Shown here piece by piece: positions 487-41,164 of a stretch of DNA of 64,000 nucleotides. The stretch's first letter is position 1. Every line of letters starts with the position of its first letter. Position numbers and translations under genes: made by a program. The notes under the pieces were generated by a model. It was not told the DNA's origin, did no database searches, and worked only from the letters and a program-made list of their open reading frames with translations. Source of the DNA: Candidatus Nomurabacteria bacterium (GTDB taxonomy: Bacteria; Patescibacteriota; Minisyncoccia; Phycocordibacterales; UBA9973); the NCBI GenBank assembly GCA_016699365.1, contig CP064973.1, positions 365,684 to 429,683 on the forward strand, read 5' to 3'.

Positions 487-864
487 ATGACTTTAGACGA
501 TTATATAAATGAAATAAAAAATTCTGATGTACTTCCACCAGAACAGAAAGCAAAGGCTGTTGCACTTCTAACATCTCGAGCTATTACTCCAGCGGTACTT
601 GATGAGGTACAAGCTTTGATTGACAGTGAGTTGGACAAGTCTTTCTCTGAAGCTGGAATACAAGCTGATCTTAAAAATCCTGAAGTTGCAGAGATTATTG
701 CTAAAGCTGATGCGGATATATCTTCCGTGGAACAAGACTTAGATAATAGTGTTAAATTTTTTGAAGAAGAAATGAACGCTCTTGAGGCGCAGGTGAAAGA
801 AGTAGATGATGCTGTAACTCAAGGTAAAATTGAGGATTTGAAAAAAGATTTGGCTTCAGTATAA
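487..864 (+). CDS. hypothetical acidic protein
   Basis: 125-aa ORF that starts 3 bp after the previous stop, so translational coupling is likely. D/E-rich; no family recognised. Confidence 0.35.
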   Translation: MTLDDYINEIKNSDVLPPEQKAKAVALLTSRAITPAVLDEVQALIDSELDKSFSEAGIQADLKNPEVAEIIAKADADISSVEQDLDNSVKFFEEEMNALEAQVKEVDDAVTQGKIEDLKKDLASV

Positions 865-902
865 ACTTAGTGAATCAAAGCCCTAGATAATAGGGTTTTG
901 AT

Positions 903-931
903 TTGACATAAAAGCCCGATTTTGATAGTAT
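903..931 (+). promoter_or_regulatory. sigma70-like promoter (TTGACA-17 bp-TAGTAT) in front of the rpsN-led ribosomal gene string
   Basis: TTGACA at 903-908 and TAGTAT at 926-931 with a 17-bp spacer, read directly from the sequence. It follows a terminator-like hairpin (aagcccta..tagggttt) after the upstream gene. Confidence 0.4.
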
Positions 932-1047
932 AGGCGAAGCCAAATAGGTATCTGGCGAATCCGTGTTTCTCCTTTAGTTTGCTCGTTTTTGAGCTAATTT
1001 AAGAAAAGACACGAGATATTCCCAAATACTAAAAGGCTTTTATATAT

Positions 1048-1233
1048 ATGGCTAAAAAATCAACCGTTGCACGGTCAAAAAGAAAACCAAAATTTAGTAC
1101 TCGAAAAGTAAATCGATGTTTTCGTTGTGGTCGCACACGTGGTTTCATGGGAGATTTCGGAGTTTGTCGTATTTGCTTTAGAGAATTAGCAAACGAAGGT
1201 AAGATTCCAGGTATCCGTAAATCTAGTTGGTAA
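1048..1233 (+). CDS. rpsN: 30S ribosomal protein S14, zinc-binding type Z (61 aa)
   Basis: [46 protein letters not shown] shows the Cys4 zinc motif and the classic S14-Z sequence. Confidence 0.92.
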
Positions 1234-1258
1234 TCATAATTCAATAATAAAAATCACT

Positions 1259-1645
1259 ATGGATCCAATCGCAGACATGTTAATAAAGCTAAAGAACGCT
1301 AACCGTGCAGAGCACGAAACTGTTAGTGTTCCTTTTTCACAGATAAAACTCGCTATTTTAGAGTGTTTGGTTGGTGAAGGGTACATAAAATCAGTTACAA
1401 AGAAGACTGAAAAAACTCACCCAACTCTTGAAGCTGAATTGGCTTATAGAGATGGATCTCCTCGTATAAGTGATGTTTCTAGAATTTCAAAGCCTTCTCG
1501 CAGAATGTACATGGGTGCAAAAGATATCAGACCTATCAAAAATGGCTTTGGACTTATTGTCCTATCAACTCCAAAGGGTATTATGTCTGGAACAAAAGCA
1601 AAGAAAGAACTGGTCGGTGGAGAGGTGCTATTTAAAATGTGGTAA
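1259..1645 (+). CDS. rpsH: 30S ribosomal protein S8
   Basis: N-terminus MDPIADMLIKLKNANRAEHETVSVPFSQIK and C-terminal GGEVL...W are typical S8. Its position after S14 matches spc operon order. Confidence 0.92.
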   Translation: MDPIADMLIKLKNANRAEHETVSVPFSQIKLAILECLVGEGYIKSVTKKTEKTHPTLEAELAYRDGSPRISDVSRISKPSRRMYMGAKDIRPIKNGFGLIVLSTPKGIMSGTKAKKELVGGEVLFKMW

Positions 1646-1658
1646 TAACAAAAGATTT

Positions 1659-2192
1659 ATGTCACGCGTAGGAAAAAAACAACTTAAAATCGAATCTGGA
1701 GTAACAATTACTTACGTTGATGGTCTTTGTACTGTTACAGGTCCAAAGGGTACTATTACAAAAAACTTCCGAGATGATATTGAAATAAAAATCGAGGATG
1801 GATTGGTAACTTTCTCACCAAGAAAAGACACAGTGTTCAGTAGAGCTCTATGGGGAACATATGCTTCTCATGTTGAAAACATGATTAACGGTGTTACAAA
1901 TATGTTCTCAAAGAAATTGATTCTTGAGGGAGTTGGATTCAAGTCAGAGGTTTCTGGTCAAAATCTAAACCTAGCATTAGGCTTCTCTCACCCTGTGGTT
2001 GTTCCAATCCCAGCAGGTCTTACAGTAACTGCTGAAAAGAACGTAATCACTGTTTCTGGAATAGACAAAGAACTTGTAGGACAATTTACAGCAAAAGTTC
2101 GTGCGATGAAAAAGCCTGAGCCTTATAAAGGTAAAGGATTCCGTTACGACACAGAGACTATTCGCCGAAAACAAGGTAAGAAATCTGCATAA
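1659..2192 (+). CDS. rplF: 50S ribosomal protein L6
   Basis: [22 protein letters not shown]... is an L6 N-terminus. The track ORF 1470-2192 is an in-frame upstream extension that overlaps rpsH. The true start is ATG 1659. Confidence 0.9.
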
Positions 2193-2197
2193 AAAAT

Positions 2198-2548
2198 ATG
2201 AAAACAGTAAACAAAAAAACAGAAAAGAGAAACCGCATAAAACGAAAGATCAAGATCAAGATCAGTGGTACTTCAGAGCGTCCACGCTTGTCAGTTTTTC
2301 GCTCAAATAAGTTTATATACGCACAGCTTATTGATGACACAAAAGGCACAACTCTGGCTTCATATTCAGATGTAAAAATAGACAAAGGAACAAAAAATGA
2401 AAGAGCAATAAGTGTTGGAAAAGAAATTGCTAAGATTGCTATTGAGAAGGGAATAAAAACTGTTGTTTTTGATAGAAATGGATTTAAATATACTGGACGT
2501 GTAAAACTTCTTGCAGATAAAGCTCGAGAAGGAGGATTAATTTTTTAA
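2198..2548 (+). CDS. rplR: 50S ribosomal protein L18
   Basis: [35 protein letters not shown] is an L18 signature. Confidence 0.9.
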
Positions 2549-2557
2549 ACTAATTAT

Positions 2558-3199
2558 ATGGATACAGAAGAGAACAAAAACATAACACCTGAAGTTGTAG
2601 CAGCAGAACCTAAGAAGGAGGCTGTTGTTCCACAGAAGAGAGAAGGTGGATCTCGTGGAGCACCAAAAGGTCATGGAGGAAATCGCTCTGGAGGCAGAAG
2701 TGGAGGTTTTTCTAGACCAAAACCAGAATTTGACCAAAAGATTATTGATATCCGTCGCGTTACTCGTGTTGTAGCAGGAGGACGTCGCATGAGTTTCTCT
2801 GTAGCTATGGTTATAGGAGACAAGAAAGGTTCAGTAGGATTTGGAACAGGAAAGGCTACAGATACAGCGCTCGCTATATCTAAAGCACTAAAGAATGCTA
2901 GAAAGAACATGATAACAATCAAGACTACAAAAGGAATGTCTATTCCTCATGAAGTAGAAGCAAAATTCGCAAGTTCACGAATCAAAATATCTCCAAACAA
3001 GAGACACGGAATAGTTGCAGGTAGTACTGTTCGTGATATCGTAATACTAGCAGGATTGAAAAACATTACAGGAAAGATTCATTCAGGAAGTAAAAACAAA
3101 TTGAATAACGCACAAGCTACTCTTAAGGCATTGTCACTTATAGCAACAAAGAAGCGAGTTGCTCCTGTAGAAGAAGTACAATCATACGTACAGCAATAA
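2558..3199 (+). CDS. rpsE: 30S ribosomal protein S5 (with Gly/Arg-rich N-terminal extension)
   Basis: IIDIRRVTRVVAGGRRMSFSVAMVIGDKKGSVGFGTGKATDTALAISKA is an S5 core. It is followed directly by L15 with no L30 gene in between. Confidence 0.9.
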   Translation: MDTEENKNITPEVVAAEPKKEAVVPQKREGGSRGAPKGHGGNRSGGRSGGFSRPKPEFDQKIIDIRRVTRVVAGGRRMSFSVAMVIGDKKGSVGFGTGKATDTALAISKALKNARKNMITIKTTKGMSIPHEVEAKFASSRIKISPNKRHGIVAGSTVRDIVILAGLKNITGKIHSGSKNKLNNAQATLKALSLIATKKRVAPVEEVQSYVQQ

Positions 3200-3210
3200 T
3201 TTGAAATTTT

Positions 3211-3654
3211 ATGCAAATACACAAACTAAAAAGAAATACTCCAAATAAAAAGAGCGCTCAAGTAGGACGTGGTGGTACTCGTGGAAAAACTTCTGGACGT
3301 GGAACAAAAGGACAGAAGTCACGCGCAGGTAACAAGAGACGCCCTCATATTCGAGATATCATAAAAAAGCTACCTAAACTTCGTGGTAGAGGTAAAAACA
3401 GTTTCGTTAGTTTTGAAATTAAACCAGCAGTTGTGAACCTATCTGCAATCGAATCTAATTTCAAAGCAGGGGATATTGTTACACCAACTATATTACTTGA
3501 AAAAAAGCTCGTAAAACGCATCCGTGGTATTACACCAAAAGTTAAACTATTAGGTACTGGTGAATTAACTAAGAAAATAATCTTCTCAAGAATACTAGTT
3601 TCAGAATCAGCAAAAGCTAAGATAGCTGCAACTGGAGGAGAAATACGCAAATAA
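3211..3654 (+). CDS. rplO: 50S ribosomal protein L15
   Basis: MQIHKLKRNTPNKKSAQVGRGGTRGKTSGRGTKGQKSRAG is a glycine/lysine-rich L15 N-terminus. Confidence 0.9.
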   Translation: MQIHKLKRNTPNKKSAQVGRGGTRGKTSGRGTKGQKSRAGNKRRPHIRDIIKKLPKLRGRGKNSFVSFEIKPAVVNLSAIESNFKAGDIVTPTILLEKKLVKRIRGITPKVKLLGTGELTKKIIFSRILVSESAKAKIAATGGEIRK

Positions 3655-3659
3655 AAATT

Positions 3660-4931
3660 ATGACAAAGTTCTGGCAAAAAATACATAAAATATTTACTGA
3701 TAAACAACTAAGAAAGCGAATATTGTTCACTGTGTTAATGCTGGCGGCTTTTAGAATTTTGGCTGCTATTCCAGTTCCGGGGATAGATACATCTCGACTA
3801 GCTTCTCTGCTCGCAAACAACCAATTCTTGGGAATAATAAATATATTTTCTGGAGGAGGACTATCAAACCTATCAATTATAATGTTGGGTGTAGGTCCAT
3901 ATATCACAGCTTCTATCATAATGCAGCTTCTTACTCTTATGATCCCTCGTTTGAAGGAGATGTATCAAGAAGAAGGTGAGATCGGAAGAAAGCGTTTTAC
4001 TCAATACTCAAGACTTCTTACAGTCCCTCTAGCTGCTATTCAAGGTTTTAGTTTGCTTGTAATACTTGCAAGACAAGGAGTTTTGCCTGCACTAGGATTA
4101 TTTGATCTTATAACTAGCATAGTAGTTATAATTGCTGGTTCTATGCTTTTGATGTGGATTGGTGAACTTATCACAGAATTCGGTATAGGTAACGGTGTCT
4201 CAGTTATAATTTTTGCAGGTATCGTAGCGACAGTTCCAACTCAAATGAGTCAAATCTTGTTCTCTTTTGATCCATCTCAGGTGCCATTTTATATACTCTT
4301 TATATTGGCTGGTATATTGATGATTATTGGAGTTATATATGTTACTGAGGCTGAAAGACCTATCCCTGTTACATATGCAAAACAATCAAGAGGTAACGCA
4401 ACAACACAAGGAGCTTCTACATATATCCCACTGCGCGTTAACCAAGCTGGAGTTATTCCTATAATTTTCGCACTATCAATACTTCTATTTCCACAACTTA
4501 TAGGTAACTACCTAGCAACTTCAACATCACTGTTTCTTTTGAAAGTTTCTGACTTCATGCTCTTGTTTGCTCAAGGAACACTTTGGTATGGAATTGCATA
4601 CTTTGTATTGGTATTCTTGTTCACTTACTTCTACACTGCTGTTACTTTTGATCCGCACGCTATGGCTACAAACTTACAAAAAGGCGGTGCTTTTGTTCCA
4701 GGTATTAGACCAGGAACTGCAACAGAAGAATATGTAGGTAACATAGTTACTCGCATAACATTCCTAGGCGCTCTATTCTTGGGATTGGTAGCAGTATTTC
4801 CATTCATCATTCAGAAAGTTACAGGTATCACACAACTTGCTATCGGCGGAACAGCACTCTTGATCGTAGTTTCTGTAGTGCTTGATATAATCAAAAAAAT
4901 CGACGCTCAGCTATCAATGCGAGAATACTAA
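3660..4931 (+). CDS. secY: preprotein translocase subunit SecY
   Basis: 423-aa polytopic membrane protein with SecY motifs (LFTVLMLAAFRI..., GGTALLIVVSV). Canonical position after rplO. Confidence 0.95.
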   Translation: MTKFWQKIHKIFTDKQLRKRILFTVLMLAAFRILAAIPVPGIDTSRLASLLANNQFLGIINIFSGGGLSNLSIIMLGVGPYITASIIMQLLTLMIPRLKEMYQEEGEIGRKRFTQYSRLLTVPLAAIQGFSLLVILARQGVLPALGLFDLITSIVVIIAGSMLLMWIGELITEFGIGNGVSVIIFAGIVATVPTQMSQILFSFDPSQVPFYILFILAGILMIIGVIYVTEAERPIPVTYAKQSRGNATTQGASTYIPLRVNQAGVIPIIFALSILLFPQLIGNYLATSTSLFLLKVSDFMLLFAQGTLWYGIAYFVLVFLFTYFYTAVTFDPHAMATNLQKGGAFVPGIRPGTATEEYVGNIVTRITFLGALFLGLVAVFPFIIQKVTGITQLAIGGTALLIVVSVVLDIIKKIDAQLSMREY

Positions 4932-5027
4932 AATATAAAGTAGCAAAAAACATACTGTCCAAAAATAATTCATAAATAAATTTATGAATTATTTTTCTAA
5001 AAGGACATTTTATGTTAGGATGCGAGT

Positions 5028-5636
5028 ATGGAAAACAAACCTCAAACATTTATATTCTTTGGCAGATCTGGATCTGGCAAGGGAACACAAGCTAAATTAC
5101 TCAAAGAACTTCTAGAAGGTAAAAACCGCAAGGTTATTTACCTTGAAACGGGTGAAAAGTTTAGAGACTTTATTCAGAAAGATAACTATACAGCTAATTT
5201 AACGAAGGGTGTTATGAAAGACGGAGGGCTACTGCCACCTTTTTTACCTGTATGGATTTGGGCAGATTCACTAATTGAGCAGTTTACTGGAGTAGAAGAT
5301 TTGATACTAGACGGACTTGCTCGTAGAGCATCAGAGGCTCCGGTGCTTGATTCTGCAATTTCTTTTTACAAAAGAGAAAGACCTTATGTTGTATCTATAA
5401 ATGTATCTAGGAATTGGTCAAAAGAACGCATGATGAGTCGAGGTAGGAGTGATGATACAGAAGAGTATATAGAGTCACGACTTGATTGGTATGATAGGGA
5501 TGTGGTGCCTGCTATAGAGTATTTTAGAAATCACTCAGGTTATCATTTTATTGATGTGCACGGTGAGCAGTCTATTGAAAAAGTTCACGAAGAATTGATT
5601 AAAAAGATTTCAATTTTAAAAGGTGATAATAATTAA
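5028..5636 (+). CDS. adk: adenylate kinase-like (P-loop GRSGSGKGTQA)
   Basis: FIFFGRSGSGKGTQAKLL P-loop. Canonical spc-operon position between secY and map. Divergent, without a LID zinc motif. Confidence 0.75.
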   Translation: MENKPQTFIFFGRSGSGKGTQAKLLKELLEGKNRKVIYLETGEKFRDFIQKDNYTANLTKGVMKDGGLLPPFLPVWIWADSLIEQFTGVEDLILDGLARRASEAPVLDSAISFYKRERPYVVSINVSRNWSKERMMSRGRSDDTEEYIESRLDWYDRDVVPAIEYFRNHSGYHFIDVHGEQSIEKVHEELIKKISILKGDNN

Positions 5637-17134: not shown

Positions 17135-17187
17135 GTCACAGATATTTTGCTCGCCGTCGCTTGCAAAATTCCGCGACCCAGGCTCAC
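17135..17187. repeat. conserved ~53-bp box, copy A (gtcacagatattttgctcgccgtcgcttgcaaaattccgcgacccaggctcac)
   Basis: About 85% identical to 20873-20927, copy B. It contains a GTCGC-N12-GCGAC hairpin whose stem is conserved between copies while the loop differs. Confidence 0.6.
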
Positions 17188-17305: not shown

Positions 17306-17310
17306 ACCAG

Positions 17311-17694
17311 TGGAAATGGGGGGAGTCGAACCCCCGTGCAAGGGAGGTTTCGTATGGAGTCTACGTGCATAGTTTGTTTTATTTGTTTAAAGCAAATATC
17401 TATAAAACCAACAAAATAATATTTACTCGATTCTCAATTGTTTCGAAAATTATCTGAGACGCGATATTTTTCTATCCCGATAGATGTTGCCTCGTGTATT
17501 TTATCGGAAGTCGAACACAGAGACACTCGCGAGCTTAAGCTCGAGCGAGAGCAAGATCAGCCATACCGAAGTATGGTGATGTTACCTTACCAAATGTTTT
17601 TGCATTTGAGTTTTGTGCGCTGTTTTACGAGCGTTTCGCACGAGCTCGGCACGCACCATACAAAACTAATCCTTTGTCGATGCCTTACATTCCC
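17311..17694 (-). ncRNA. ssrA: tmRNA (transfer-messenger RNA, ssrA), ~384 nt
   Basis: Minus-strand 5' end is GGGAATGTAAGGCATCGACAAAGG. The 3' end is GGGGGTTCGACTCCCCCCATTTCCA, a T-arm plus an acceptor that pairs with the 5' end. An internal tag reading frame is present, and the gene lies immediately downstream of smpB. Confidence 0.85.
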
Positions 17695-20872: not shown

Positions 20873-20927
20873 GTCACAGATATTTTACTCGCCGTCGCTC
20901 GTAAAATTCCGCGACCCCGGCTCGTGG
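20873..20927. repeat. conserved ~53-bp box, copy B (gtcacagatattttactcgccgtcgctcgtaaaattccgcgaccccggctcgtgg)
   Basis: Paralog of 17135-17187. Like copy A it lies just beyond the 3' end of a minus-strand RNA gene (tRNA-Ile) and just upstream of a minus-strand CDS. Confidence 0.6.
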
Positions 20928-24820: not shown

Positions 24821-25186
24821 TCCTAATATAGATTTTATTTTATCAGACAATTCGTCTAGCGTGAAGTTTGATTTGATCATGAAATCTGTTGCACCAAGTT
24901 CACGAGCACGTGCTATGTCTTTGTCTTCTGATAGATTTGAGAAAACTATTACAGGTGTTTTTGCGAGAGCAGCATTTGAGCGTATTTTTTCTAGAACTGT
25001 GAATCCGTCCATAGTAGGAAGTACTAAGTCTAGGAGTACAAAATCAGGATTTTCACTATCTGCAATCTTCACTGCATCTTCACCTGTTGAGGCAGTAAGT
25101 ACTTGAAATCCATCTTTTGATAATTTTCCTGCTGCAAGTCCTTGTAGGAATGAATCGTCTTCAATTATAAGAATTTTCTTTGGCAT
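24815..25186 (-). CDS. response regulator, receiver domain only (CheY-like)
   Basis: KILIIEDD...DFVLLDLVLPTMDGFTVLEKIR...KTPVIVFSNL carries the phospho-acceptor Asp and Lys. Confidence 0.8.
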   Translation of the reverse strand: MPKKILIIEDDSFLQGLAAGKLSKDGFQVLTASTGEDAVKIADSENPDFVLLDLVLPTMDGFTVLEKIRSNAALAKTPVIVFSNLSEDKDIARARELGATDFMIKSNFTLDELSDKIKSILGL

Positions 25187-25210
25187 ATAATGTATTGTAC
25201 TCGTGACACC

Positions 25211-25963
25211 TTATCTGTGCAAGGGTAGTGAAAATGTAAAAGTAGTGCCTTCACTTTCGGTAGATTTGAAGTTTATTTTACCACCATGTTTTTCTATTAT
25301 GTGCTTAGTTGTATATAAACCCAATCCTGATCCAATAGAGTCTTTGGCTTTGGCATTTGTAGCTCTATAAAATTTACCAAATATTTGTTCTTGCTCACTT
25401 ACAGGTATTCCTATGCCAGTGTCTTTTACTGAAATTTCCACTTCGTTTTCATTTGCATGAATAGATATGAGCACCTTGTCTCCTGTATTGCTGTATTTAA
25501 TTGCATTTTCGATTAGATTTTGAATAACAACTCTAACCTTTTCTTTGTCGCAAGTTATCTGTTTGATTGGATTTTCTGGTTTTAAGAAAATTGTCTCAAT
25601 ACCTTTTTTGAAAGCTTCACTAGAGAAGTCAAAAAGAGTTTCATCTATTAGTTTGACCATATCCACTTCTTCAAAATTGTAAGTCAGAGATGTTGTGTCT
25701 GCATGATTGAGTGAAAGCATTTCGTTTACAAGCGATAACATGCGTTCGTTTGAATCACTTGCACGTTTCATAAAATCTGTTTGCTCAGGAGTTAGTTCGC
25801 CAAAATCTTTGTCTAGAAACATGCGGAGTATCCACTTCACAGCGGAAAGGGTAGTTCGGAGCTGGTGCGCAGATATAGAAATCCAATTACTTTTTAGTGC
25901 ATTTTGTTGCTTGAGTTCTTCGTTCTCTTTTTTAAGTTGTTCAATTTCTTCTGTTTCAGTCAT
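25211..25963 (-). CDS. cytoplasmic sensor histidine kinase (coiled coil + HisKA + HATPase_c)
   Basis: H-box ISAHQLRTTLSAV, N-box NLIENAIKYS, and G-boxes DTGIGIP and GSGLGLY. The track ORF continues to 26230, but those extra 89 codons are translation of the GC-rich inverted repeat. The proposed start is MTETEE. Confidence 0.75.
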   Translation of the reverse strand: MTETEEIEQLKKENEELKQQNALKSNWISISAHQLRTTLSAVKWILRMFLDKDFGELTPEQTDFMKRASDSNERMLSLVNEMLSLNHADTTSLTYNFEEVDMVKLIDETLFDFSSEAFKKGIETIFLKPENPIKQITCDKEKVRVVIQNLIENAIKYSNTGDKVLISIHANENEVEISVKDTGIGIPVSEQEQIFGKFYRATNAKAKDSIGSGLGLYTTKHIIEKHGGKINFKSTESEGTTFTFSLPLHR

Positions 25964-26003
25964 GAGAGCATTATACCTTGCGAGGGTATGTAGTACAAAA
26001 TTT

Positions 26004-26214
26004 GCGGTGTTTGTTGGACAAAGTTCGAAACTATTTCGAGCAAAATCCAAACGATTAAAACTAATATAATGGACTCGGCAGGGCGAAACAATTTGTCTGG
26101 GGGAATGGATTCGCCCTGCCTCGGCTGATTTCCCGCCCGCAGGAGGGGTCTGGGGAGGAATGCGGGCGGGTTTCGGACTGGGGGTTTTCAGAAATTTCGC
26201 CATCGGATTTCGTA
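26004..26214. repeat. inverted copy of the left 211 bp of the 327-bp GC-rich unit (reverse complement of 27794-28004, 1 mismatch seen)
   Basis: Direct comparison of the two stretches. GC-rich and hairpin-dense, e.g. cccgcccgca...tgcgggcggg. Confidence 0.85.
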
Positions 26215-26235
26215 CCAATAAAGTTGGCACACCGC

Positions 26236-26667
26236 CTATGTTTTTATTCTATCAATATTTTCTACCGATAGCCAAGCCGACATCATTCCAAATCCTGCCT
26301 TGTTAATTTCAAACGGCTCAATTTCTTTCGGATTTTTCAAAAATATCAAAAGACAATAATTTTTATTTTTGAATAACTCAAAAAATTCCTTAATTTTATC
26401 TTTTTCGATTCCGTCATCATTTCCGTATTCATCTAAAATCTGACTAACTTTTTCGGGTGTTAAATCGGAAAAGGAAACCACTTTTTCTACTTCGGTCTTG
26501 ATTGAAACAGGTTCACCAGAATCTTTGAAATAAACAGTATCGCCTTTTCCGATTTTTCCCCAAGGAGAGTGTTTTGATTTATACCACCGAGATTCAATTT
26601 TCTTTTGTCCCGAAAGAATTTTTTGAGTTAATCCCCATGATTTTTTCATTATTGCCACATGGTCCAT
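26236..26667 (-). CDS. ASCH-like (PUA-fold) domain protein
   Basis: MKKSWGLTQKILSGQKKIESRWYKSKHSPW...GDTVYF resembles ASCH-domain openings. Moderate to low confidence. Confidence 0.35.
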   Translation of the reverse strand: MDHVAIMKKSWGLTQKILSGQKKIESRWYKSKHSPWGKIGKGDTVYFKDSGEPVSIKTEVEKVVSFSDLTPEKVSQILDEYGNDDGIEKDKIKEFFELFKNKNYCLLIFLKNPKEIEPFEINKAGFGMMSAWLSVENIDRIKT

Positions 26668-26705
26668 ATTTATTTTTTCTTTAGTTCATAATACTTGCTA
26701 ATTTT

Positions 26706-27473
26706 CTAATAACCTTTTGTTTTCAGCCAATCAATAATTATGTTAGAAAATTTTTCTGGATTAAACAAACACCAATCATGATTACCGTCTACGAATTTTA
26801 ATTCAGAATTTTCTATATTCCGATGAAAATTTTCTGCAAGATTTTTAGGAAATATTTCATCTTGTTCGCCCCACAAAATTAAGGTTTTTGCACTAACATT
26901 ATGGAAATCAGGGAAGTCGGTCAATAAAAACTTTTTTACCACACTTATCGTAAATTTCCGTTCAGAAAATCTTTTGGAAACATTTTCAAAAAAGTCTCTA
27001 ACAATTAGCAAAAAAGTCCCAAGATTTCTATATTTGAAAATGTCGCGGATTGTTTTTTCAATAAAATAAATATACAAAAACTTAAATTTTGAAATATTTT
27101 GTGAAAGTCCGACAGAATCAGTCAGAACCATTAACTGAATATTTTTATTGCTCGCTGATAACTGTAGAGCTACAACACCACCGAAAGAATGGCCAACAAT
27201 TGCAATTTTCCCAAAGTTAAGGAAAGTTATAAATTTTTTCAAAATTTTGGAATAATCTGAAATATTGCTTGAGCATGTGGATTTTCCAAAACAAGGTAAG
27301 TCGGGAGCAATAACTAAATATTCTTTTGACAAAAAATCCAAAACTTTTTTATAAGTTAAGGCATTTACTCCACCACCATGCAAAAACAAAATCGCATTTC
27401 CCGAACCAACTTGAAAATATCTCAATTTATCATGCCCGTCTTCAAAATATTTTTCCGTATATTGCATGGTCAT
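26706..27473 (-). CDS. alpha/beta-fold hydrolase
   Basis: Nucleophile elbow GHSFGG, HGGG oxyanion-region LFLHGGGVNA, and a C-terminal His (DGNHDW). Confidence 0.7.
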   Translation of the reverse strand: MTMQYTEKYFEDGHDKLRYFQVGSGNAILFLHGGGVNALTYKKVLDFLSKEYLVIAPDLPCFGKSTCSSNISDYSKILKKFITFLNFGKIAIVGHSFGGVVALQLSASNKNIQLMVLTDSVGLSQNISKFKFLYIYFIEKTIRDIFKYRNLGTFLLIVRDFFENVSKRFSERKFTISVVKKFLLTDFPDFHNVSAKTLILWGEQDEIFPKNLAENFHRNIENSELKFVDGNHDWCLFNPEKFSNIIIDWLKTKGY

Positions 27474-27682
27474 TTCATTAGATCATCAATTGAAACGCCC
27501 AACCCTTTGGCGATTTTTGCCATAGTTTCAATTGTCGGATTCGGTGTTGCGCCAGATTCAACTTTGATAATCACATTATAAGCAATATCAGCCAACTTCG
27601 AGAGTTTATCCTGCGAAATACCGAGTTTCTCTCTGTATTTTTTTATATTTTTTGCAATTGTTGGTAATTCTTTTGACTTCAT
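27470..27682 (-). CDS. XRE-family helix-turn-helix transcriptional regulator (70 aa)
   Basis: LGISQDKLSKLADIAYNVIIKVESG...IETMAKIAKGLGVSIDDL is a Cro/C1-type HTH. It overlaps the hydrolase gene by 4 bp. Confidence 0.75.
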   Translation of the reverse strand: MKSKELPTIAKNIKKYREKLGISQDKLSKLADIAYNVIIKVESGATPNPTIETMAKIAKGLGVSIDDLMK

Positions 27683-27793
27683 AGTATAATTATACTAGTA
27701 TAGATAGTGAGATAAGTTTTACTATTATAACTTTACCAAATAAAATGAATTTAATCAAACAAAATTTTTGGCGGTGCATTTCGCAAAGCGAAA

Positions 27794-28120
27794 TACGAAA
27801 TCCGATGGCGAAATTTCTGAAAATCCCCAGTCCGAAACCCGCCCGCATTCCTCCCCAGACCCCTCCTGCGGGCGGGAAATCAGCCGAGGCAGGGCGAATC
27901 CATTCCCCCAGACAAATTGTTTCGCCCTGCCGAGTCCATTATATTAGTTTTAATCGTTTGGATTTTGCTCGAAATAGTTTCGAACTTTGTCCAACAAACA
28001 CCGCCAAAATTGAAAATCGGAATCGGAAGCCGAAATGGGGTCGGCACGAAGTGCCGACACAAATGTATTCCCCCCAAAAAATCCTGAATCTGAAAGGGTT
28101 CGCCACGCTCCGCGTGGCTC
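27794..28120. repeat. 327-bp GC-rich, hairpin-dense unit (U). Its left 211 bp and right 120 bp each recur as inverted copies at the outer ends of the 26004-29639 segment.
   Basis: Strong stems such as ggcagggcgaa...ttcgccctgcc, ggtcggcac gaa gtgccgac and gccacgc tcc gcgtggc sit in an otherwise AT-rich genome. The two inverted repeats overlap by 4 bp, CCGC at 28001-28004. Confidence 0.8.
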
Positions 28121-28139
28121 CTCGTTTGCCAATACAATT

Positions 28140-29648
28140 ATGAATAATCAAACCAAAAAGTTTTTCATTTATACTCGCAAGTCTACGGACGACAAAGACA
28201 GACAAGTCCGCAGTATTTCTGACCAATTAGCGGAATTGAAAAGTTTAGCGTTGAAAGAACAAATTGATGTTGTTGATGTCTTTGTCGAAAAGCAGACCGC
28301 CAAAATACCAGGTCGCCCTGTGTTTAATGAAATGTTGGAAAGAATGGAAAAGGGTGAAGCGACTGGTATTTTGGCGTGGCATCCCGATAGACTTGCGAGA
28401 AACTCGGTAGACGGAGGAAAAATCATCTACCTCGTTGATACTGGAATAATTAGTGAAATGAAATTTCCAACTTTTTGGTTTGATCCGACACCGCAAGGCA
28501 AATTCATGCTTTCAATCGCTTTTTCGCAATCCAAGTATTATGTAGATAATTTGTCGGAAAATATAAAGCGAGGTCATCGCAACAAAGTGAAAGACGGAAT
28601 ATGGCCTCAAATGGCTCCGCTTGGATATGTGAACAAAAATAGAAAAATTATTCCCGATGAGAATATCGCACCTTTAATCAAGAAAACATTTGAGGCATAT
28701 TCGTCTGGGTCTTTCACTTTGCGCCAACTCCGCGATAAGTTTAACGAACTTGGATTGAAGCGAAAAAGCGGAAAGGAACTTGCGGTGTCGAATTATCAAA
28801 AACTTTTGAAAAATCCAATTTACACAGGACTAATGTTGTATAACGGCGAGATACACGAAGGTAAACACGAACCGATTATCACAAAGAAACTTTTTGATTC
28901 CGTTCAGGAAGTGATGATGAGAAAAAGCAAACCTCATTCCAAAGGACTAAAACCATTTTTGTACAGAGGATTTTTCCGTTGCGGAGAATGTGGCTGTTTC
29001 ATTACCACTGAAACACAGAAAGGTTATAACTATTTGCGATGTACGAAACGGAAAAATCCTTGCTCACAAAAATATACCCGTGAGGAAATCATCACTTCCG
29101 AAATTCAAAAGGAAATCAAAAAAGTTTCTTTGCCAGACGATTGGGCTAAATGGATGTTAGCGGAAAATGAAAAAGACAAATTGGTGGAAGCCCAATCGTC
29201 TACGCTTTTTGCCGACAAAACAAAAGCCGATATTTCTCTTTTGGATTCCAAAATTGAGAAGCTGATGAACGCTTACTTAGAGAACGCTTTATCACTTGAG
29301 GAATATCGAGAAATGAAAAACAAGCTAGTGAACGAAAAACAGCTTCTCAAAGAGAAATTATCGGCTTTTGAGCAAAAAGCGAATAATCGGTTCGAACTTA
29401 CCGAAAAGTTTTTGAAATACAATATGGAATTGGCAAACGAGGGAATAAATGAAGAGAAACTTCATTTATTCAAAAAAGTCGGTTCGAACTTTATTATTGA
29501 AGCTCGAACCGTACTTTTTGAGCCACGCGGAGCGTGGCGAACCCTTTCAGATTCAGGATTTTTTGGGGGGAATACATTTGTGTCGGCACTTCGTGCCGAC
29601 CCCATTTCGGCTTCCGATTCCGATTTTCAATTTTGGCGGAGGATGTGA
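28140..29648 (+). CDS. large serine recombinase (resolvase catalytic domain + recombinase domain + zinc ribbon + coiled coil)
   Basis: FIYTRKSTDDKDRQVRSISDQ holds the catalytic Ser region. GILAWHPDRLARN, a Cys cluster CGECGCF...C..., and a long C-terminal coiled coil follow. The proposed start is ATG 28140 (MNNQTKK). The last ~40 codons run into inverted repeat 29520-29639. Confidence 0.85.
   Translation: MNNQTKKFFIYTRKSTDDKDRQVRSISDQLAELKSLALKEQIDVVDVFVEKQTAKIPGRPVFNEMLERMEKGEATGILAWHPDRLARNSVDGGKIIYLVDTGIISEMKFPTFWFDPTPQGKFMLSIAFSQSKYYVDNLSENIKRGHRNKVKDGIWPQMAPLGYVNKNRKIIPDENIAPLIKKTFEAYSSGSFTLRQLRDKFNELGLKRKSGKELAVSNYQKLLKNPIYTGLMLYNGEIHEGKHEPIITKKLFDSVQEVMMRKSKPHSKGLKPFLYRGFFRCGECGCFITTETQKGYNYLRCTKRKNPCSQKYTREEIITSEIQKEIKKVSLPDDWAKWMLAENEKDKLVEAQSSTLFADKTKADISLLDSKIEKLMNAYLENALSLEEYREMKNKLVNEKQLLKEKLSAFEQKANNRFELTEKFLKYNMELANEGINEEKLHLFKKVGSNFIIEARTVLFEPRGAWRTLSDSGFFGGNTFVSALRADPISASDSDFQFWRRM
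29520..29639. repeat. inverted copy of the right 120 bp of unit U (reverse complement of 28001-28120, 120/120)
   Basis: Exact match on direct comparison. Its outer end overlaps the CCA end of the adjacent tRNA. Confidence 0.9.
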
Positions 29649-29723
29649 GATTCGAACTCACGGAGCTGTTTAAGGCTCGGCAGTTTAGTAAACTGCTGGT
29701 TTCAACCACTCACCCAATCCTCC
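29634..29723 (-). tRNA. type-II (long variable arm) tRNA with encoded CCA and non-canonical anticodon loop UUACUAA (formal anticodon ACU); identity uncertain (Ser-like)
   Basis: Minus-strand read GGAGGAT TG GGT GAGTGGTTGAA ACC A GCAGT TTACTAA ACTGC CGAGCCTTAAACAGCTCCG TGAGT TCGAATC TCACA TCCTCC G CCA. It has a good acceptor and T-arm, but the anticodon loop is unusual. Confidence 0.5.
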
Positions 29724-29744
29724 ATATTTCAAATACAGAAACAG

Positions 29745-29831
29745 CGGAGACGGTGAGATTCGAACTCACGGGGGTTTTTACACCCCGCCTCCTTAGCAAG
29801 GAGGTACCTTAAACCACTCAGACACGTCTCC
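29745..29831 (-). tRNA. tRNA-Ser (anticodon GCU), type II
   Basis: Minus-strand read GGAGACG...CCTCC TTGCTAA GGAGG + long variable arm CGGGGTGTAAAAACCCCCG + TGAGT TCGAATC TCACC GTCTCC G. The anticodon loop gives GCU. Confidence 0.7.
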
Positions 29832-29876
29832 ATATCGAGATGAGAATACCACAACACGGCCATTTTTTCTAGTTTT

Positions 29877-30593
29877 TTAGTGCGCCACCACTAGTGCGAT
29901 TATGTTTCTCGCACCAGCTTCGCGTAAGACTCGGCGAGCTTCTTTTAGAGTTGCACCAGTTGTATATACATCGTCGATCAAGATTATATTTTTTCCTCTC
30001 ATATCTACTCCAGACTTTATTTTGTATGCACCTTGTAGATTTCTCAATCTTTCCAATCGGTTCCTGACTTTTGCTTGAGCTTTTGTGTCGCGGATTTTTT
30101 CTAATATATCTCCACCATATAGAAACTCTTTATCCGTGAGATTTTCTATAAAAGCTCTCGCCAGGAGTGCTGATTGATTATATCCACGTATGCGTTTTCG
30201 GTTTCTTGTGATTGGTATCGGTATAATCAGAGTTTCTTTGTTTGCATTGAAAATATTCTTTTCACTCAATATGTCTATGTTGTGTTCATACAAAGATTGG
30301 CCTAATATTTTTGCAATAGGGAATCTGCCATGGTATTTGAGTAGCCACAATGCATGCTTTACCGTACTGTCTTTATATGAAAAGCATGCATGCACAAAAG
30401 AATCTGGGATTTGGTTCGGTTCGGGGATTTTTCCTAGACATTTATCACATAGTACACTCCCTGTATTTTTGCACTTTATACACTTGGTTGGGAAAATGTA
30501 CTCGAGTATTGATGAGATTATATTCATAAATAAAATATGTATATATGATATAATACAATTACTGAATTTTATATATGGCAAACACATTTTCAA
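29877..30593 (-). CDS. comF: ComF family protein (competence protein ComFC; zinc finger + phosphoribosyltransferase domain)
   Basis: N-terminal CxxC...CxxC (CIKCKNTGSVLCDKC) and the C-terminal PRTase motif ILIDDVYTTGATLKEA. The true start is probably an internal Met near 30527. Confidence 0.75.
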   Translation of the reverse strand: MKMCLPYIKFSNCIISYIHILFMNIISSILEYIFPTKCIKCKNTGSVLCDKCLGKIPEPNQIPDSFVHACFSYKDSTVKHALWLLKYHGRFPIAKILGQSLYEHNIDILSEKNIFNANKETLIIPIPITRNRKRIRGYNQSALLARAFIENLTDKEFLYGGDILEKIRDTKAQAKVRNRLERLRNLQGAYKIKSGVDMRGKNIILIDDVYTTGATLKEARRVLREAGARNIIALVVAH

Positions 30594-38224: not shown

Positions 38225-41164
38225 TTGAATTATGAATTTTTCTGAATGAATAATATGCCCGTTTTGTATGATTTCTGCTTCATATAATCCTGACGGGAAT
38301 AATGAAATGTTTAACTCGACAATATTATTTTCATCTGTATTCATATTAGACACAGGCTGACCTAAATTATTTACAATAACAATATTAGTATTTGTATTTT
38401 TGAAAACACTTAAGTCAATATATATTTTATTGCTAGATGGATTGGGGTAGAGGATGGTATTTTCTACATCAATACCTTCTTTGCATACAATGGATACAGC
38501 AATACTGTTTGAATTTTTAAAACAACCAGTTGCTGTTTTTATTACTCTGCATTTGTAGTTTCCGGCTGATGTTGCTGTGTAATTTATATTAGTAGCACCA
38601 GTTATTGCTGTGGCACCTTTGTACCACTGGTAGCTTAAGCCCACTCCTTCATTTGCTGTAAGAGTAACACTCTCTCCGGCACAGAAACTTGTCGGTCCTC
38701 CTGCTGATATACTTGCTGGCGGATTTTTATTTACTGTTACTATTATTGCGTTTGAAGCTGTGCCTGAGCACTCGTTGGAGCTTATGCAGGTATAAGATCC
38801 TGTAGTTGATACGGTTAAAAATTCATTTGTTTCTCCTGATATTGCAACACCATTTTTATACCACTGTACAGCTGTACCTGTATGAGTTGTTGTTAATACA
38901 ATACTATTGCCTTGGCAAAAAGTGGTAGAACCTAGAGCATTTATAGACACAGAAGGTCCGGTGTCTTCATCGGTGAGTCCATCGCAGTCATCATCTATAG
39001 TATTGCAGATTTCGGGGGATGGAATACATTCGCCAAATAATTTTATAACCCAGTAGTCGAAATTACCTATAGAATTTTCAGTTTTATCACCTGAAATATT
39101 TGATTGAGACATACCACCTAGTATGTATCCTTTATCAGAAGTTTGTTGTAATGAGAAAAAATAATCATCTCCGCTTCCTCCTATAGTATTTTGCCATTCG
39201 ATTACACCAGACTCATTAATTTTGACTACCCAGTAATCACTTGATAGAGACGCCTCATTTTTATCCCCGTATATACCAGAGGCTGAAGTTCCTCCAAGAA
39301 TATAGCCCCCATCTAGTATATTTTTTACAGACAATAAATCATCCGTAGAATTACCTCCTATTGTGTTTTCCCATTCAATAAATCCTTCGGCGCTTAATTT
39401 AATAACCCAATAATCAGAGCCTCCAAAATTTATTTCAGTCTTATCGCCTGAGATGCTTGAAAGAGAAATTCCTCCCAGTATATATCCTCCGTCAGGGGTT
39501 TGTTGCACAGAATACATTATATCGCTCATGTTTCCTCCTATGGTATTCTGCCATTCAATATTTCCATCATTATTTAATTTAACAACCCAATAGTCGTACA
39601 TTGAAGATACTTCAGTTTTATCACCAGATATACCAGAGGATGAATTTCCACCTAAAATATATCCTCCATCCACTGTTTGTTGAACTGATTGAAGATTATC
39701 ATCTCCGCTTCCTCCTATAGTATTTTGCCATTCGATTACACCTGAGCTGTCTAATTTAATAACCCAGTAATCTAAGAATCCAATTAATACTTCAGTTTTA
39801 TCACCAGATATACCAGAGGATGAATTTCCACCTAAAATATATCCTCCATCCACTGTTTGTTGAACTGATTGAAGATTATCATCTCCGCTTCCTCCTATAG
39901 TATTTTGCCATTCGATTACACCTGAGCTGTCTAATTTAATAACCCAGTAATCAGATAAGCCTAAGGATAATTCAGTCTTATCTCCTGAAATACCTGAATA
40001 AGAAGATCCACCTAAAATATATCCTCCATCAGAGGTTTGTTTAATAGAGTAAAAAAAGTCTTGACTACTTCCTCCTATGGTATTCTGCCATTCAATATTT
40101 CCATCATTCCCCAATTTAATAATCCAATAGTCATCAGATAAAGATATTTCCGTTTTGTCACCCGATATACCAGAGGATGAATTACCTCCTAAAATATACC
40201 CACCGTCATATGTCTGTTCTATTGAGTAAAGGCCATCATAGTTTGATCCTCCTATGGTATTCTGCCATTCGATTTCTGGTGCAGTTTCGATATAAGTACT
40301 TGGTCTATTTGCATCGATGAAGTCTGTTCCATCAATAATTCCATCACGTTGCATATTAGCAAAAGCAATAGTTGTTTGTTCAGCTGTCATTGTTCCTGCG
40401 AAATGAATTCCGCTATTTGCACAAGGTTCAATACAGTCAACTAGTCCTCCGTAACCACCTCTACCGTTATCTCTTGGGTAAAGGATATTTCCATTTCCTG
40501 AATAACTGTACAAAGAGTTTCGTATACTAAAATGAAGATGGGGAGACATAGGGGTGCCTCCTCCGGGTGCAGTATAACCTGATCCAATTCTAGCAATTGG
40601 CTGACCTCTTGTTACCCATTCACCAATAGATACAGTAAAATCATCAATACTATTACAAATACTTCCATCGGTATTGTTTAGAGTAGTGACGTGATTGTAT
40701 TCACTTGTATTTATACTGTCGCCTTCATAATAATGCTCTACAACAATAACCCATCCGGAATACGCTGCAACACCTAATCCGCTTGAAATTTTTATATCAA
40801 CAATAATTCCATTAGCAGAAACAAATATTGTGTCTCCGTTGTCTCCTCCTTCTCGGTTTAAGTCACATCCTGGGTGATCACCTTTACTTGTATTACCAAA
40901 GTCACCCTCGTCTCCTGCGCTGAATATTCCAGTACATCCAGTCAAACACTCTCTTTGAGGATTTGCAATTGGATTGTTGGGGTAGAGTGTATTTTGTTCC
41001 GGACTAAGATTTTCACTTATCTCGTACTCATTACCTTCGGCTGTGTAACCCCTATCATCAACAGGGTAGTCCCAGCCGTCTACATAAAGAGTGTCCGGTG
41101 TTTGCGAAAAGATTGCGGATGCAATTATTAGCATCAACGCAATTAGAAGAATAAACTTTTTCAT
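38222..41164 (-). CDS. secreted 980-aa multidomain protein: M23 (LytM) peptidase domain + ~8 SBBP-type beta-propeller repeats + MopE/Ig-like region + T9SS-type C-terminal sorting domain
   Basis: N-terminal signal peptide. The M23 motifs are HPGCDL and SPHLHFSIR. Repeats have the form IEWQNTIGG...DGGYILGG.SSSGISGDKTE....DYWVIKL. The C-terminus is NTILYPNPSSNKIYIDLS...GLYEAEIIQNGHIIHSEKFIIQ. Confidence 0.7.
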   Translation of the reverse strand: MKKFILLIALMLIIASAIFSQTPDTLYVDGWDYPVDDRGYTAEGNEYEISENLSPEQNTLYPNNPIANPQRECLTGCTGIFSAGDEGDFGNTSKGDHPGCDLNREGGDNGDTIFVSANGIIVDIKISSGLGVAAYSGWVIVVEHYYEGDSINTSEYNHVTTLNNTDGSICNSIDDFTVSIGEWVTRGQPIARIGSGYTAPGGGTPMSPHLHFSIRNSLYSYSGNGNILYPRDNGRGGYGGLVDCIEPCANSGIHFAGTMTAEQTTIAFANMQRDGIIDGTDFIDANRPSTYIETAPEIEWQNTIGGSNYDGLYSIEQTYDGGYILGGNSSSGISGDKTEISLSDDYWIIKLGNDGNIEWQNTIGGSSQDFFYSIKQTSDGGYILGGSSYSGISGDKTELSLGLSDYWVIKLDSSGVIEWQNTIGGSGDDNLQSVQQTVDGGYILGGNSSSGISGDKTEVLIGFLDYWVIKLDSSGVIEWQNTIGGSGDDNLQSVQQTVDGGYILGGNSSSGISGDKTEVSSMYDYWVVKLNNDGNIEWQNTIGGNMSDIMYSVQQTPDGGYILGGISLSSISGDKTEINFGGSDYWVIKLSAEGFIEWENTIGGNSTDDLLSVKNILDGGYILGGTSASGIYGDKNEASLSSDYWVVKINESGVIEWQNTIGGSGDDYFFSLQQTSDKGYILGGMSQSNISGDKTENSIGNFDYWVIKLFGECIPSPEICNTIDDDCDGLTDEDTGPSVSINALGSTTFCQGNSIVLTTTHTGTAVQWYKNGVAISGETNEFLTVSTTGSYTCISSNECSGTASNAIIVTVNKNPPASISAGGPTSFCAGESVTLTANEGVGLSYQWYKGATAITGATNINYTATSAGNYKCRVIKTATGCFKNSNSIAVSIVCKEGIDVENTILYPNPSSNKIYIDLSVFKNTNTNIVIVNNLGQPVSNMNTDENNIVELNISLFPSGLYEAEIIQNGHIIHSEKFIIQ
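39607..39952. repeat. perfect tandem duplication inside the SBBP-repeat gene: 166 bp at 39607-39772 identical to 39787-39952 (period 180 bp = one 60-aa repeat)
   Basis: Direct comparison of the two stretches. Flanking repeats are more diverged. Confidence 0.85.

Follow-up and report, generated by a model that had tools for sequence, protein, structure and literature searches.

A hairpin-rich region of a Candidatus Nomurabacteria genome as the probable internal attachment-site joint of a large serine recombinase element at tRNA-Ser

Within a 64,000-nucleotide (nt) stretch of DNA from a Candidatus Nomurabacteria bacterium (contig CP064973.1, positions 365,684 to 429,683; hereafter the window), positions 27794 to 28120 form a GC-rich region dense in hairpins, designated U. 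Our analysis indicates that U is probably the internal attachment-site joint of a ~3.6-kb integrative element that a neighboring large serine recombinase (LSR) moves and that lies at the 3' end of a tRNA-Ser gene. U is a joint, composed of a left arm (L), the 4-bp core CCGC, and a right arm (R), and is not a repeated unit. The ends of the element are hybrid joints: tRNA-Ser/R at the recombinase end, which is of the attL type, and L/host flank beside a histidine kinase gene, which is of the attR type. Both end joints are inverted relative to U, such that the two L copies (L'...L) bracket a cargo operon led by a helix-turn-helix (HTH) gene, and the two R copies (R...R') bracket the recombinase gene. 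The sites are as follows.

26003 and below: host flank of site 1, assigned by identity to a sister strain.
26004..26007, minus strand (GCGG on plus, CCGC on minus): core of site 1, the attR-type joint of L and host flank, placed by the point at which sister-strain (L088) identity resumes (26007), the three-site alignment, and the joints of 22 loci.
26008..26214, minus strand: L' arm, which repeats L in inverted orientation and closes the cargo module on its outer side, from the inverted repeat.
27794..28000, plus strand: L arm of U, P type, with hairpins at 27838-27876 and 27888-27931 in its distal part.
27957-28000, plus strand: proximal ~45 nt of L, with a TTCGAA motif, conserved in all L types.
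28001..28004, plus strand: core CCGC of site 2, the internal attP-type joint, from the three-site alignment and the joints of 22 loci.
28005..28120, plus strand: R arm of U, P' type, from the 120-nt inverted repeat, comprising hairpin A, a C-rich tract, and hairpin B.
28040-28058, plus strand: R hairpin A, with three covarying pairs.
28102-28118, plus strand: R hairpin B, with an invariant stem in the locus alignment.
28120..28145, plus strand: short extra inverted repeat (CCTCGTTTGCCAAT...), which pairs with 29417-29442 inside the recombinase gene.
29520..29635, minus strand: R' arm, which repeats R in inverted orientation where the element ends on the recombinase side, from the inverted repeat.
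29636..29639, minus strand (GCGG on plus): core of site 3, the attL-type joint of tRNA-Ser and R, from the three-site alignment; L088 identity ends at 29634.

A preliminary description of this DNA had quoted four long stems from U, and all four are present there at the given sequence: cccgcccgca/tgcgggcggg (starts 27838/27867), ggcagggcgaa/ttcgccctgcc (27888/27921), ggtcggcac/gtgccgac (28039/28051), and gccacgc/gcgtggc (28102/28112). Its GC content of 55 to 60% applies to the hairpin blocks (0.56 to 0.64) and not to the whole of 27794-28120 (0.511), against 0.370 for the window. It had also spoken of a unit with inverted copies, and this needs correction, as no whole inverted copy of U exists and the left and right parts recur separately. 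The left ~207 nt are found inverted at 26008-26214 (repeat 26001-26214/27794-28007, 99% identity over 214 nt), and the right ~120 nt are found inverted at 29520-29639 (repeat 28001-28120/29520-29639, 100% over 120 nt). No further U-like sequence occurs anywhere in the window, and the stem words are confined to the three sites.

When the three sites are aligned, CCGC is the sole sequence common to all of them. Site 2, the internal one, reads ...ACACCGC followed by CAAAATTG... of the R arm. Site 1, on the reverse strand, reads ...ACACCGC followed by AAATTTTG... of the host flank, and site 3, also on the reverse strand, reads ...CATCCTCCGC, the 3' end of tRNA-Ser(ACT), followed by CAAAATTG.... 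A 19-nt overlap given by the repeat finder was considered as the core and dropped, as the alignment leaves CCGC alone in common. L is thus reused beside the histidine kinase gene, and R is reused beside tRNA-Ser, where it forms the last ~40 codons of the recombinase open reading frame (ORF). The site set of the window fits attP/attL/attR logic, with tRNA/R and L/flank opposed to L/R around CCGC, and the same holds in 22 loci from other genomes. The crossover can be bounded to these 4 nt, within which strand exchange by the recombinase is predicted.

Comparison with a sister strain (L088) delimits the element. The two sequences are 100% identical from a ComF-like gene through both tRNA-Ser genes of this locus, up to window position 29634, and 97.6% identical from 26007 into the kinase operon. 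In the interval between these two points, which coincide with the two outer cores, L088 has a different, 4.7-kb element with another LSR. The ~3.6-kb element at 26008-29635 is a precise insertion at the 3' end of tRNA-Ser. The L088 element itself, at 496-5180 (the site of window 26008-29633), encodes a 439-amino-acid (aa) LSR, a 403-aa protein of unknown function, and an S66 peptidase; bracketing inverted repeats are absent from it, and the direct repeat CATCCTCCGC stands at both ends. A relic of a joint between another arm and R is seen at L088 4392-4430.

To define the distribution of the layout, L and R were mapped onto 87 fetched loci, and their order was read where the contig was long enough. 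The order L'-cargo-L/R-recombinase-R' is found in every sufficiently complete locus. R always lies on both sides of the recombinase gene, and the L/R joint is always directly upstream of it. In the 22 fully resolved loci, the joints are without exception L...ACACCGC followed by R, tRNA...CTCCGC followed by R, and L...ACACCGC followed by a variable flank, the host flank beyond L being different in each. About 70 R' ends adjoin the 3' half of a tRNA, and a full tRNA-Ser is present at 39 of the 52 R' ends scored (anticodons gct 15, gga 11, tga 8, cga 3, and act 2). The same two-module layout is found with a more distant recombinase in L028, at tRNA-Ala and with the core CCAC. Dozens of assemblies show this layout independently, and two of the records (L036 and L069) bear whole-chromosome titles. 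The preliminary description had offered a recombinase site set as one candidate and had proposed checking whether the unit travels with a serine recombinase in other Patescibacteria. It does, with copies only at module edges beside the recombinase gene, and the comparative evidence supports the site set, as R flanks the gene and the joints swap partners at the core.

Carriers are widespread. Homologues of the recombinase number in the thousands; the best 120 are 85 to 97% identical and come from many Patescibacteria lineages, and species-representative genomes hold 322 relatives, the best 80 of them at least 81% identical. Source records of the carriers name Saccharibacteria, Paceibacterota, Uhrbacteria, Levyibacteriota, Peribacteria, and others. 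Some contigs with the element among L008 to L087 are labeled Gammaproteobacteria, Bdellovibrionales, Actinomycetota, or Bacteroidia in their source records, which is probably due to misbinning or automatic mislabeling. The element does not occur on viral contigs, where the one relative is 23% identical, and none above 30% identity is found in phage and plasmid collections; a phage or plasmid origin is therefore unsupported. Cargo modules measure 1.5 to 6.4 kb and often encode restriction-modification enzymes with controller-type HTH proteins; other cargo includes defense candidates, RadC, LexA-like proteins, and copper resistance. Further two-module elements, with arms of their own and more distant recombinases, occur at L028 11632-14994, L066 4882-8279, and L070 3529-7438 in tandem with the main family, one of them being the element at tRNA-Ala with core CCAC.

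The recombinase has the domain order of the LSR family, with N-terminal resolvase catalytic, recombinase, and zinc-ribbon domains (PF00239, 9.9e-19; PF07508, 9.9e-15; PF13408, 9.5e-8). Weak but significant matches to the SPbeta and A118 integrase chains are found, and identity to characterized LSRs is below 30%. In the published structural model of LSRs, half-sites of attP have their outer motif shifted ~5 bp away from the center compared with those of attB. The left arms of the present element and of its tRNA-Ala relative show such spacing. In L, ~45 nt beside the core are conserved in all L types, and the distal part is not; the conserved part has TTCGAA 16 nt from CCGC, against 11 nt in the T-loop of tRNA-Ser. 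In the tRNA-Ala relative, GGTTCG is 18 nt from the core in the L-like arm, against 13 nt in the tRNA. L mimics the tRNA T-arm motif with 5 bp of extra spacing, as expected of LSR attP versus attB half-sites. On the other side of the core, TTCGRAA-like motifs are present ~6 to 12 and ~19 to 24 nt away in all five variants of the R-proximal sequence. The host-side flank shows no motif, which suggests that the tRNA half alone of the attB site is read specifically. Copies or close variants of GGTTCGAAC, a T-arm-like word, are also seen at 29388-29397, 29478-29489, and 29502-29511 in the 3' part of the recombinase gene, as well as at 27970-27986 in the L-proximal region, and could be extra binding sites for the recombinase or the HTH protein.

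The conserved part of L adjoins the core and the two long hairpins of the window are limited to one L type, so the long GC-rich stems, which had been proposed as binding and crossover sites, are probably not crossover sites themselves, although the site set to which they belong is upheld. Other familiar site types were also compared. Integron attC sites, single imperfect palindromes at cassette 3' ends that the tyrosine integrase IntI recombines in folded single-stranded form, do not fit, as the adjacent enzyme is a serine recombinase and each site here joins two distinct arms instead of forming such a palindrome. A Hin/Gin-type invertase, a small serine enzyme with a C-terminal HTH and a pair of ~26-bp inverted sites around a segment that occurs in both orientations, does not fit either, as the enzyme is a 502-aa LSR and the recombinase module is flipped in none of the loci seen.

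Several observations weigh against the attachment-site interpretation or narrow it. The 30 nt of R next to the core fall into five variants with the TTCGRAA-like motif alone in common, which leaves the P' half-site loosely defined, and the host-side half-site (X) has no conserved motif, which is unusual for an LSR attB. The arms, at 120 and 200 to 270 nt, are far longer than the ~25 bp needed per LSR half-site; the inner edge of R is fixed in all loci, and this fixed edge, together with the conserved hairpins of the arms, implies extra functions. No recombination was directly observed; the predicted empty attB of this strain has 0 matches in metagenome contigs, from which the strain may be absent, and an excised form of its element was likewise not found. 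In four loci the recombinase gene lies between two tRNA-Ser genes, an arrangement that could equally stem from homologous recombination between two element copies. R and R' are 89% identical in L023 and 79% identical in L053, and as the diverged arms in these two fit homologous recombination, the two-tRNA loci were dropped as proof of an active internal attP. Finally, the role of the internal inverted joint is one that we infer.

We envisage the following life cycle. LSR dimers would bind the arms and exchange strands within CCGC, and excision would join the element ends into a second, inverted copy of U. Given polar cores, the sole precursor derivable by an LSR would be a circle with two inverted copies of U. 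The internal copy has either been inherited since an ancient inverted duplication or is functionally required. Function is suggested because the joint is universally retained, fixed in position between the divergent HTH and recombinase genes, and present in the tRNA-Ala family. It may serve as an LSR-binding operator in the divergent HTH/recombinase control region, and may also be a live attP, able to react with other tRNA-Ser sites. Such an internal site would be stable only if inverted, since in direct orientation it would expose the recombinase module or the cargo module to deletion by the enzyme. The arm pairs would stay identical, and the cargo would now and then be flipped, through ordinary homologous events (gene conversion and inversion) at the 120- to 270-bp repeats. 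The GC-rich hairpins would be accessory, and R would serve both as the tRNA 3' trailer, up to a terminator, and as the recombinase 5' leader.

The genes and signals to which this scheme refers are as follows.

26236-26667, minus strand: ASCH-domain protein, cargo (Pfam).
26706-27473, minus strand: alpha/beta hydrolase, cargo (Pfam).
27470..27682, minus strand: XRE/HTH_3 gene, 70 aa, first gene of the cargo operon (Pfam HTH_3, E = 6e-15).
27661..27690, plus strand: promoter-like TTGGTA-18-TATAAT directed through U toward the recombinase gene (10 of 12 consensus matches).
28140..29648, plus strand: LSR gene, 502 aa (Pfam Resolvase, Recombinase, and Zn_ribbon_recom).
29470..29511, minus strand: antisense hairpin and T-run resembling an intrinsic terminator, found by scan (hairpin from 29511-29480, then ACTTTTTTGA).
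29634..29723, minus strand: tRNA-Ser(ACT), the target gene (ARAGORN; Rfam tRNA, 54.5 bits).

The HTH_3 gene is divergent from the recombinase gene, with U between them. The promoter-like site at 27661-27690 is a consensus match only, and such sites are not more frequent in the region than in shuffled sequence. The short repeat at 28120-28145 is conserved upstream of the recombinase ATG in all loci. At the other end of the gene, the last ~43 codons cross R', and the stop codon lies inside the tRNA. Entropy by codon position is 0.49/0.51/0.59 in this tail, compared to 0.24/0.10/0.73 in the gene body; the R' stretch of the ORF evolves as noncoding DNA although it is translated. A conserved protein segment encoded by R' was considered and dropped, as codon periodicity is absent. 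The preliminary description had regarded the ORF-track translations over these sequences as spurious, and they do look so. The absent periodicity bears it out for the recombinase ORF inside R', ORF 27745-28143 over U has no Pfam match, and the kinase whose N-terminal extension runs over L' has an ATG of its own at 25963, behind TTGTAC-17-TATAAT, and is 250 aa long in the sister strain. The joints of the element explain all three extensions. Exact-protein look-ups gave no match for the kinase (250 aa), the ComF-like gene, or the recombinase as 502 or 537 aa.

Upstream of the R' tail, codons 401 to 460 are conserved at all three positions, because the antisense terminator lies there. Its stem and T-run are kept in essentially all of 66 recombinase genes, with a variable loop; the exceptions are one truncated sequence without the 5' arm and a few with single substitutions. 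Just inside R', the terminator is so positioned that a transcript running on from tRNA-Ser would end once past R. This position would make R the new 3' trailer of the tRNA at one module end and the 5' leader of the recombinase at the other. The 3' end of tRNA-Ser(ACT), ...CTCCGC-CA, is completed by the first bases of R. Two tRNA-Ser genes are adjacent here (29634-29723 and 29744-29831), one with the unusual anticodon ACT; tRNA-Ser(ACT) is also found beside elements in L023, L053, L065, and L066 and is therefore a real, conserved gene in these bacteria.

The modules are not static. Arm copies within most loci are 99 to 100% identical, whereas arms between loci differ by up to 25%. In ~15 loci R and R' come from different lineages (77 to 93% identical), and R is a mosaic of blocks. 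From core to core (2,712 nt), the cargo modules of L037 and L040 are 98.45% identical but face opposite ways with respect to the recombinase gene, and their recombinase modules are only 84.7% identical. The L-arm differences between these two loci, five substitutions and one 9-nt insertion or deletion, are each present in both arms of their locus. Of 28 loci, ~25 have the HTH gene beside U and transcribed away from the recombinase gene, and 3 have it flipped. These sequence comparisons show that the modules reassort, flip, and homogenize, and homologous recombination between the 120- to 270-bp repeats can be the source of both flipping and homogenization. The core-to-core boundary of the swapped cargo fits site-specific exchange; it is one case and no proof. 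An exotic copying step for the perfect arm identity was dropped, as gene conversion suffices and arms more than ~10% diverged stay unhomogenized, and single-strand fold-back or hairpin-primed schemes were likewise dropped, as the data give them no support.

The hairpins raise the question of whether U is mainly a structured RNA, serving as the recombinase 5' leader, with L as the 3' untranslated region (UTR) of the cargo operon and R as the tRNA-Ser 3' trailer. The fold prediction proposed in the preliminary description shows that U is more stable than dinucleotide shuffles on both strands (z = -4.16 on the plus and -2.59 on the minus strand), with 0 of 100 shuffles folding as well. The plus-strand value favors RNA, as do the promoter-like site at 27661-27690 directed through U to the recombinase gene and the sense orientation of R both after the tRNA and before the recombinase gene. 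In R hairpin A, 3 of the 6 pairs covary, and L hairpin 2 has one compensatory change along with two G.T intermediates that pair on the sense strand only. The stem of hairpin B and L hairpin 1, in the L type of the window, are invariant and thus uninformative either way. However, the proposed Rfam/Infernal check matched no family to U; over 25000-30500, in E-value mode, the two tRNAs alone are significant, and the best match inside U has E = 7.6. There are at least three unrelated L types. The two long hairpins of the window belong to one of them, and the others carry unrelated GC-rich hairpins in their place, leaving no common fold. DNA palindromes can also stay paired through template switching, which loop flips in L019 and L026 fit, and the swapping of partners precisely at the core belongs to the DNA level. 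We therefore consider a mainly RNA function unlikely. The earlier candidate of a stand-alone structured noncoding RNA lacks support as the main identity of U, with no Rfam family and covariation confined to one 6-bp hairpin in R. Stable hairpins appear to be favored in the arms, yet without one conserved RNA, and they may act secondarily at the RNA level, in a leader, trailer, or 3' UTR. In other L types (L017, L019, L028, and others), a long distal hairpin with the stem AAACCAAAAATTTCCTT/AAGGAAATTTTTGGTTT encloses a segment with G/C runs, GGCGGGGGGTGTGGGGGGAGCC, which is in opposite orientation between loci; the hairpin B loop is reverse-complemented in L019 and L026, such that hairpin interiors flip.

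Other explanations accept the recombinase and assign the internal joint a different meaning. In a self-locking inversion switch, the recombinase would recombine L/R with the inverted, attB-like tRNA/R and flip its own gene, which would be on when cotranscribed with the tRNA and off, its resting state, when convergent and stopped by the antisense terminator. Identical inner arms bracket the gene (R...R'), so product sites would equal substrate sites; the host-side arm of attB is not sequence specific, the terminator is on the antisense side only, and ~70 loci are convergent, with the arrangement tRNA/R-recombinase-R'/L' in none. Yet that absence also means that the flipped isomer, and with it any inversion of the recombinase module, has never been seen; selection, or integration through a single attP, would produce the orientation bias equally well, and LSRs normally do not pair attP with attL. 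We regard the switch as rather improbable. Alternatively, the joint could be a functionless fossil, an ancestral inverted attP duplication kept by gene conversion, with hairpins that have no role. Gene conversion alone can keep 120- to 270-bp inverted repeats identical, and hybrid loci with diverged arms persist unhomogenized. On the other hand, the layout, the R inner edge, and the HTH/recombinase position are kept although arms differ by as much as a quarter of their sequence, the same features are kept in the distinct tRNA-Ala-targeting relative, and no relative without the internal joint was found, so little weight falls on a fossil. No more credible are symmetric cassettes, in which the modules would be independent circles with a two-fold symmetric site (R'/R or L/L'), relying on the palindromic CG/GC in CCGC, and would enter junctions in either orientation, integron-like but with double-stranded DNA and a serine recombinase. 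Each module does lie between the two halves of a perfect inverted repeat of its own, neighboring modules meet at the core (L028, L066, and L070 have three or four in a row), and cargo modules reassort and occur in both orientations. Against this, tRNA/L' junctions number 0 in all loci, R'/R junctions number 0 in 241 million metagenome records (where perfect palindromes assemble poorly), and the tRNA-Ala relative has the same layout with a core, CCAC, that lacks the palindromic dinucleotide. Finally, U is GC-rich and palindromic and many contigs break there, as might be expected of a dispersed repeat resembling repetitive extragenic palindromes or miniature inverted-repeat transposable elements, or of an assembly artifact. 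The copies in the 64 kb, however, are the three sites, the stem words occur nowhere else in the window, copies elsewhere are found only at module boundaries beside the recombinase gene, and the layout comes from dozens of independent assemblies, including the whole-chromosome records L036 and L069; this explanation is very nearly untenable.

The enzyme and the logic of its joints place the element among LSR integrative elements. Like the large serine integrases of phages and integrative and conjugative elements (TP901-1 Int, A118/LI Int, SPbeta SprA, phiC31, and Bxb1), it has the Resolvase, Recombinase, zinc-ribbon, and coiled-coil set, a short common core, hybrid joints after integration, and a motif ~5 bp outward in the element arm. 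It differs from them in that the protein is less than 30% identical, the target is the 3' end of tRNA-Ser with a second host half-site that is not conserved, an additional, inverted attP-type joint persists after integration, the arms are 120 to 270 nt long and hairpin-rich, and phage or conjugation genes are absent. SCCmec (CcrAB) and Tn4451/Tn5397 (TnpX and TndX) are likewise small, nonphage LSR cargo elements at or in the end of a conserved housekeeping gene, with tandem arrays and recombinase-less modules, and their LSRs, which carry out both integration and excision, are not known to need a separate directionality factor. In contrast to the present element, they have direct-repeat ends and no internal inverted joint, they target rlmH or GA dinucleotides, and their hosts are Firmicutes.

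Segments between inverted sites, which a recombinase can invert or exchange and not delete, are also known from phiC31 cassette exchange, the yeast 2-micron FRT sites, the phage P1 C-segment, and the Mu G-segment. The excised circle predicted here would resemble the 2-micron plasmid, with two inverted repeats dividing it into a recombinase arc and another arc, whereas a replication function is not evident in this element. The recombinases of those systems are tyrosine or small serine enzymes, or the systems are engineered, and none is integrative at a tRNA gene. The tycheposons of Prochlorococcus are small islands with partial tRNA copies and modular cargo in streamlined genomes, at specific tRNA genes including tRNA-Ser; 910 of 937 use tyrosine recombinases, and many carry replication genes (bioRxiv 10.1101/2020.12.28.424599). 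The element described here resembles them in modular cargo at tRNA genes, tRNA-Ser included, and in streamlined hosts; bracketing inverted repeats or an internal att joint are not described for them. In the open literature we found no description of this element, nor of an LSR that targets tRNA-Ser, a conserved internal inverted attP, long hairpin-rich arms, a built-in tRNA terminator, or the spread through Patescibacteria.

Elsewhere in the window, 51-nt direct repeats at 17135-17185 and 20873-20923, 92% identical and downstream of tmRNA (17310-17694) and tRNA-Ile(TAT) (21003-77), bracket a 3.7-kb stretch with a GC content of 0.42 to 0.44. This stretch includes a 639-aa ORF, the L088 equivalent of which is annotated as an FtsH-like AAA protease, and a recombinase-sized ORF was not seen there. 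Further along, seven tandem copies of a 177- to 180-nt unit (39073-40323; 64 to 96% identical), in a minus-strand-skewed region, presumably encode a repeated 60-aa domain.

The genomes of Patescibacteria are tiny, and descriptions of mobile elements in them are few; to our knowledge, these bacteria lack conjugation systems. The 81 to 97% recombinase identity across lineages points to very recent and wide horizontal spread of a small accessory-gene element, which also explains the frequent assembly breaks at this locus. As a natural LSR whose universal target is defined (the 3' end of tRNA-Ser) and whose attP and attB arms are readable, the recombinase is of interest both for recombinase biology and as a tool. 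For the three-site architecture we found no counterpart. Tentatively, and with clear doubt, we suggest that bipartite three-site serine recombinase elements form a distinct class in which the internal inverted attP is a working part of the life cycle. If so, a recombinase without a directionality factor could invert modules or exchange them between elements, as a natural form of cassette exchange, could latch its own expression off after integration, or could rearrange the chromosome between tRNA-Ser genes. Such elements could then be a main vehicle of gene flow, especially of defense genes, among Patescibacteria.

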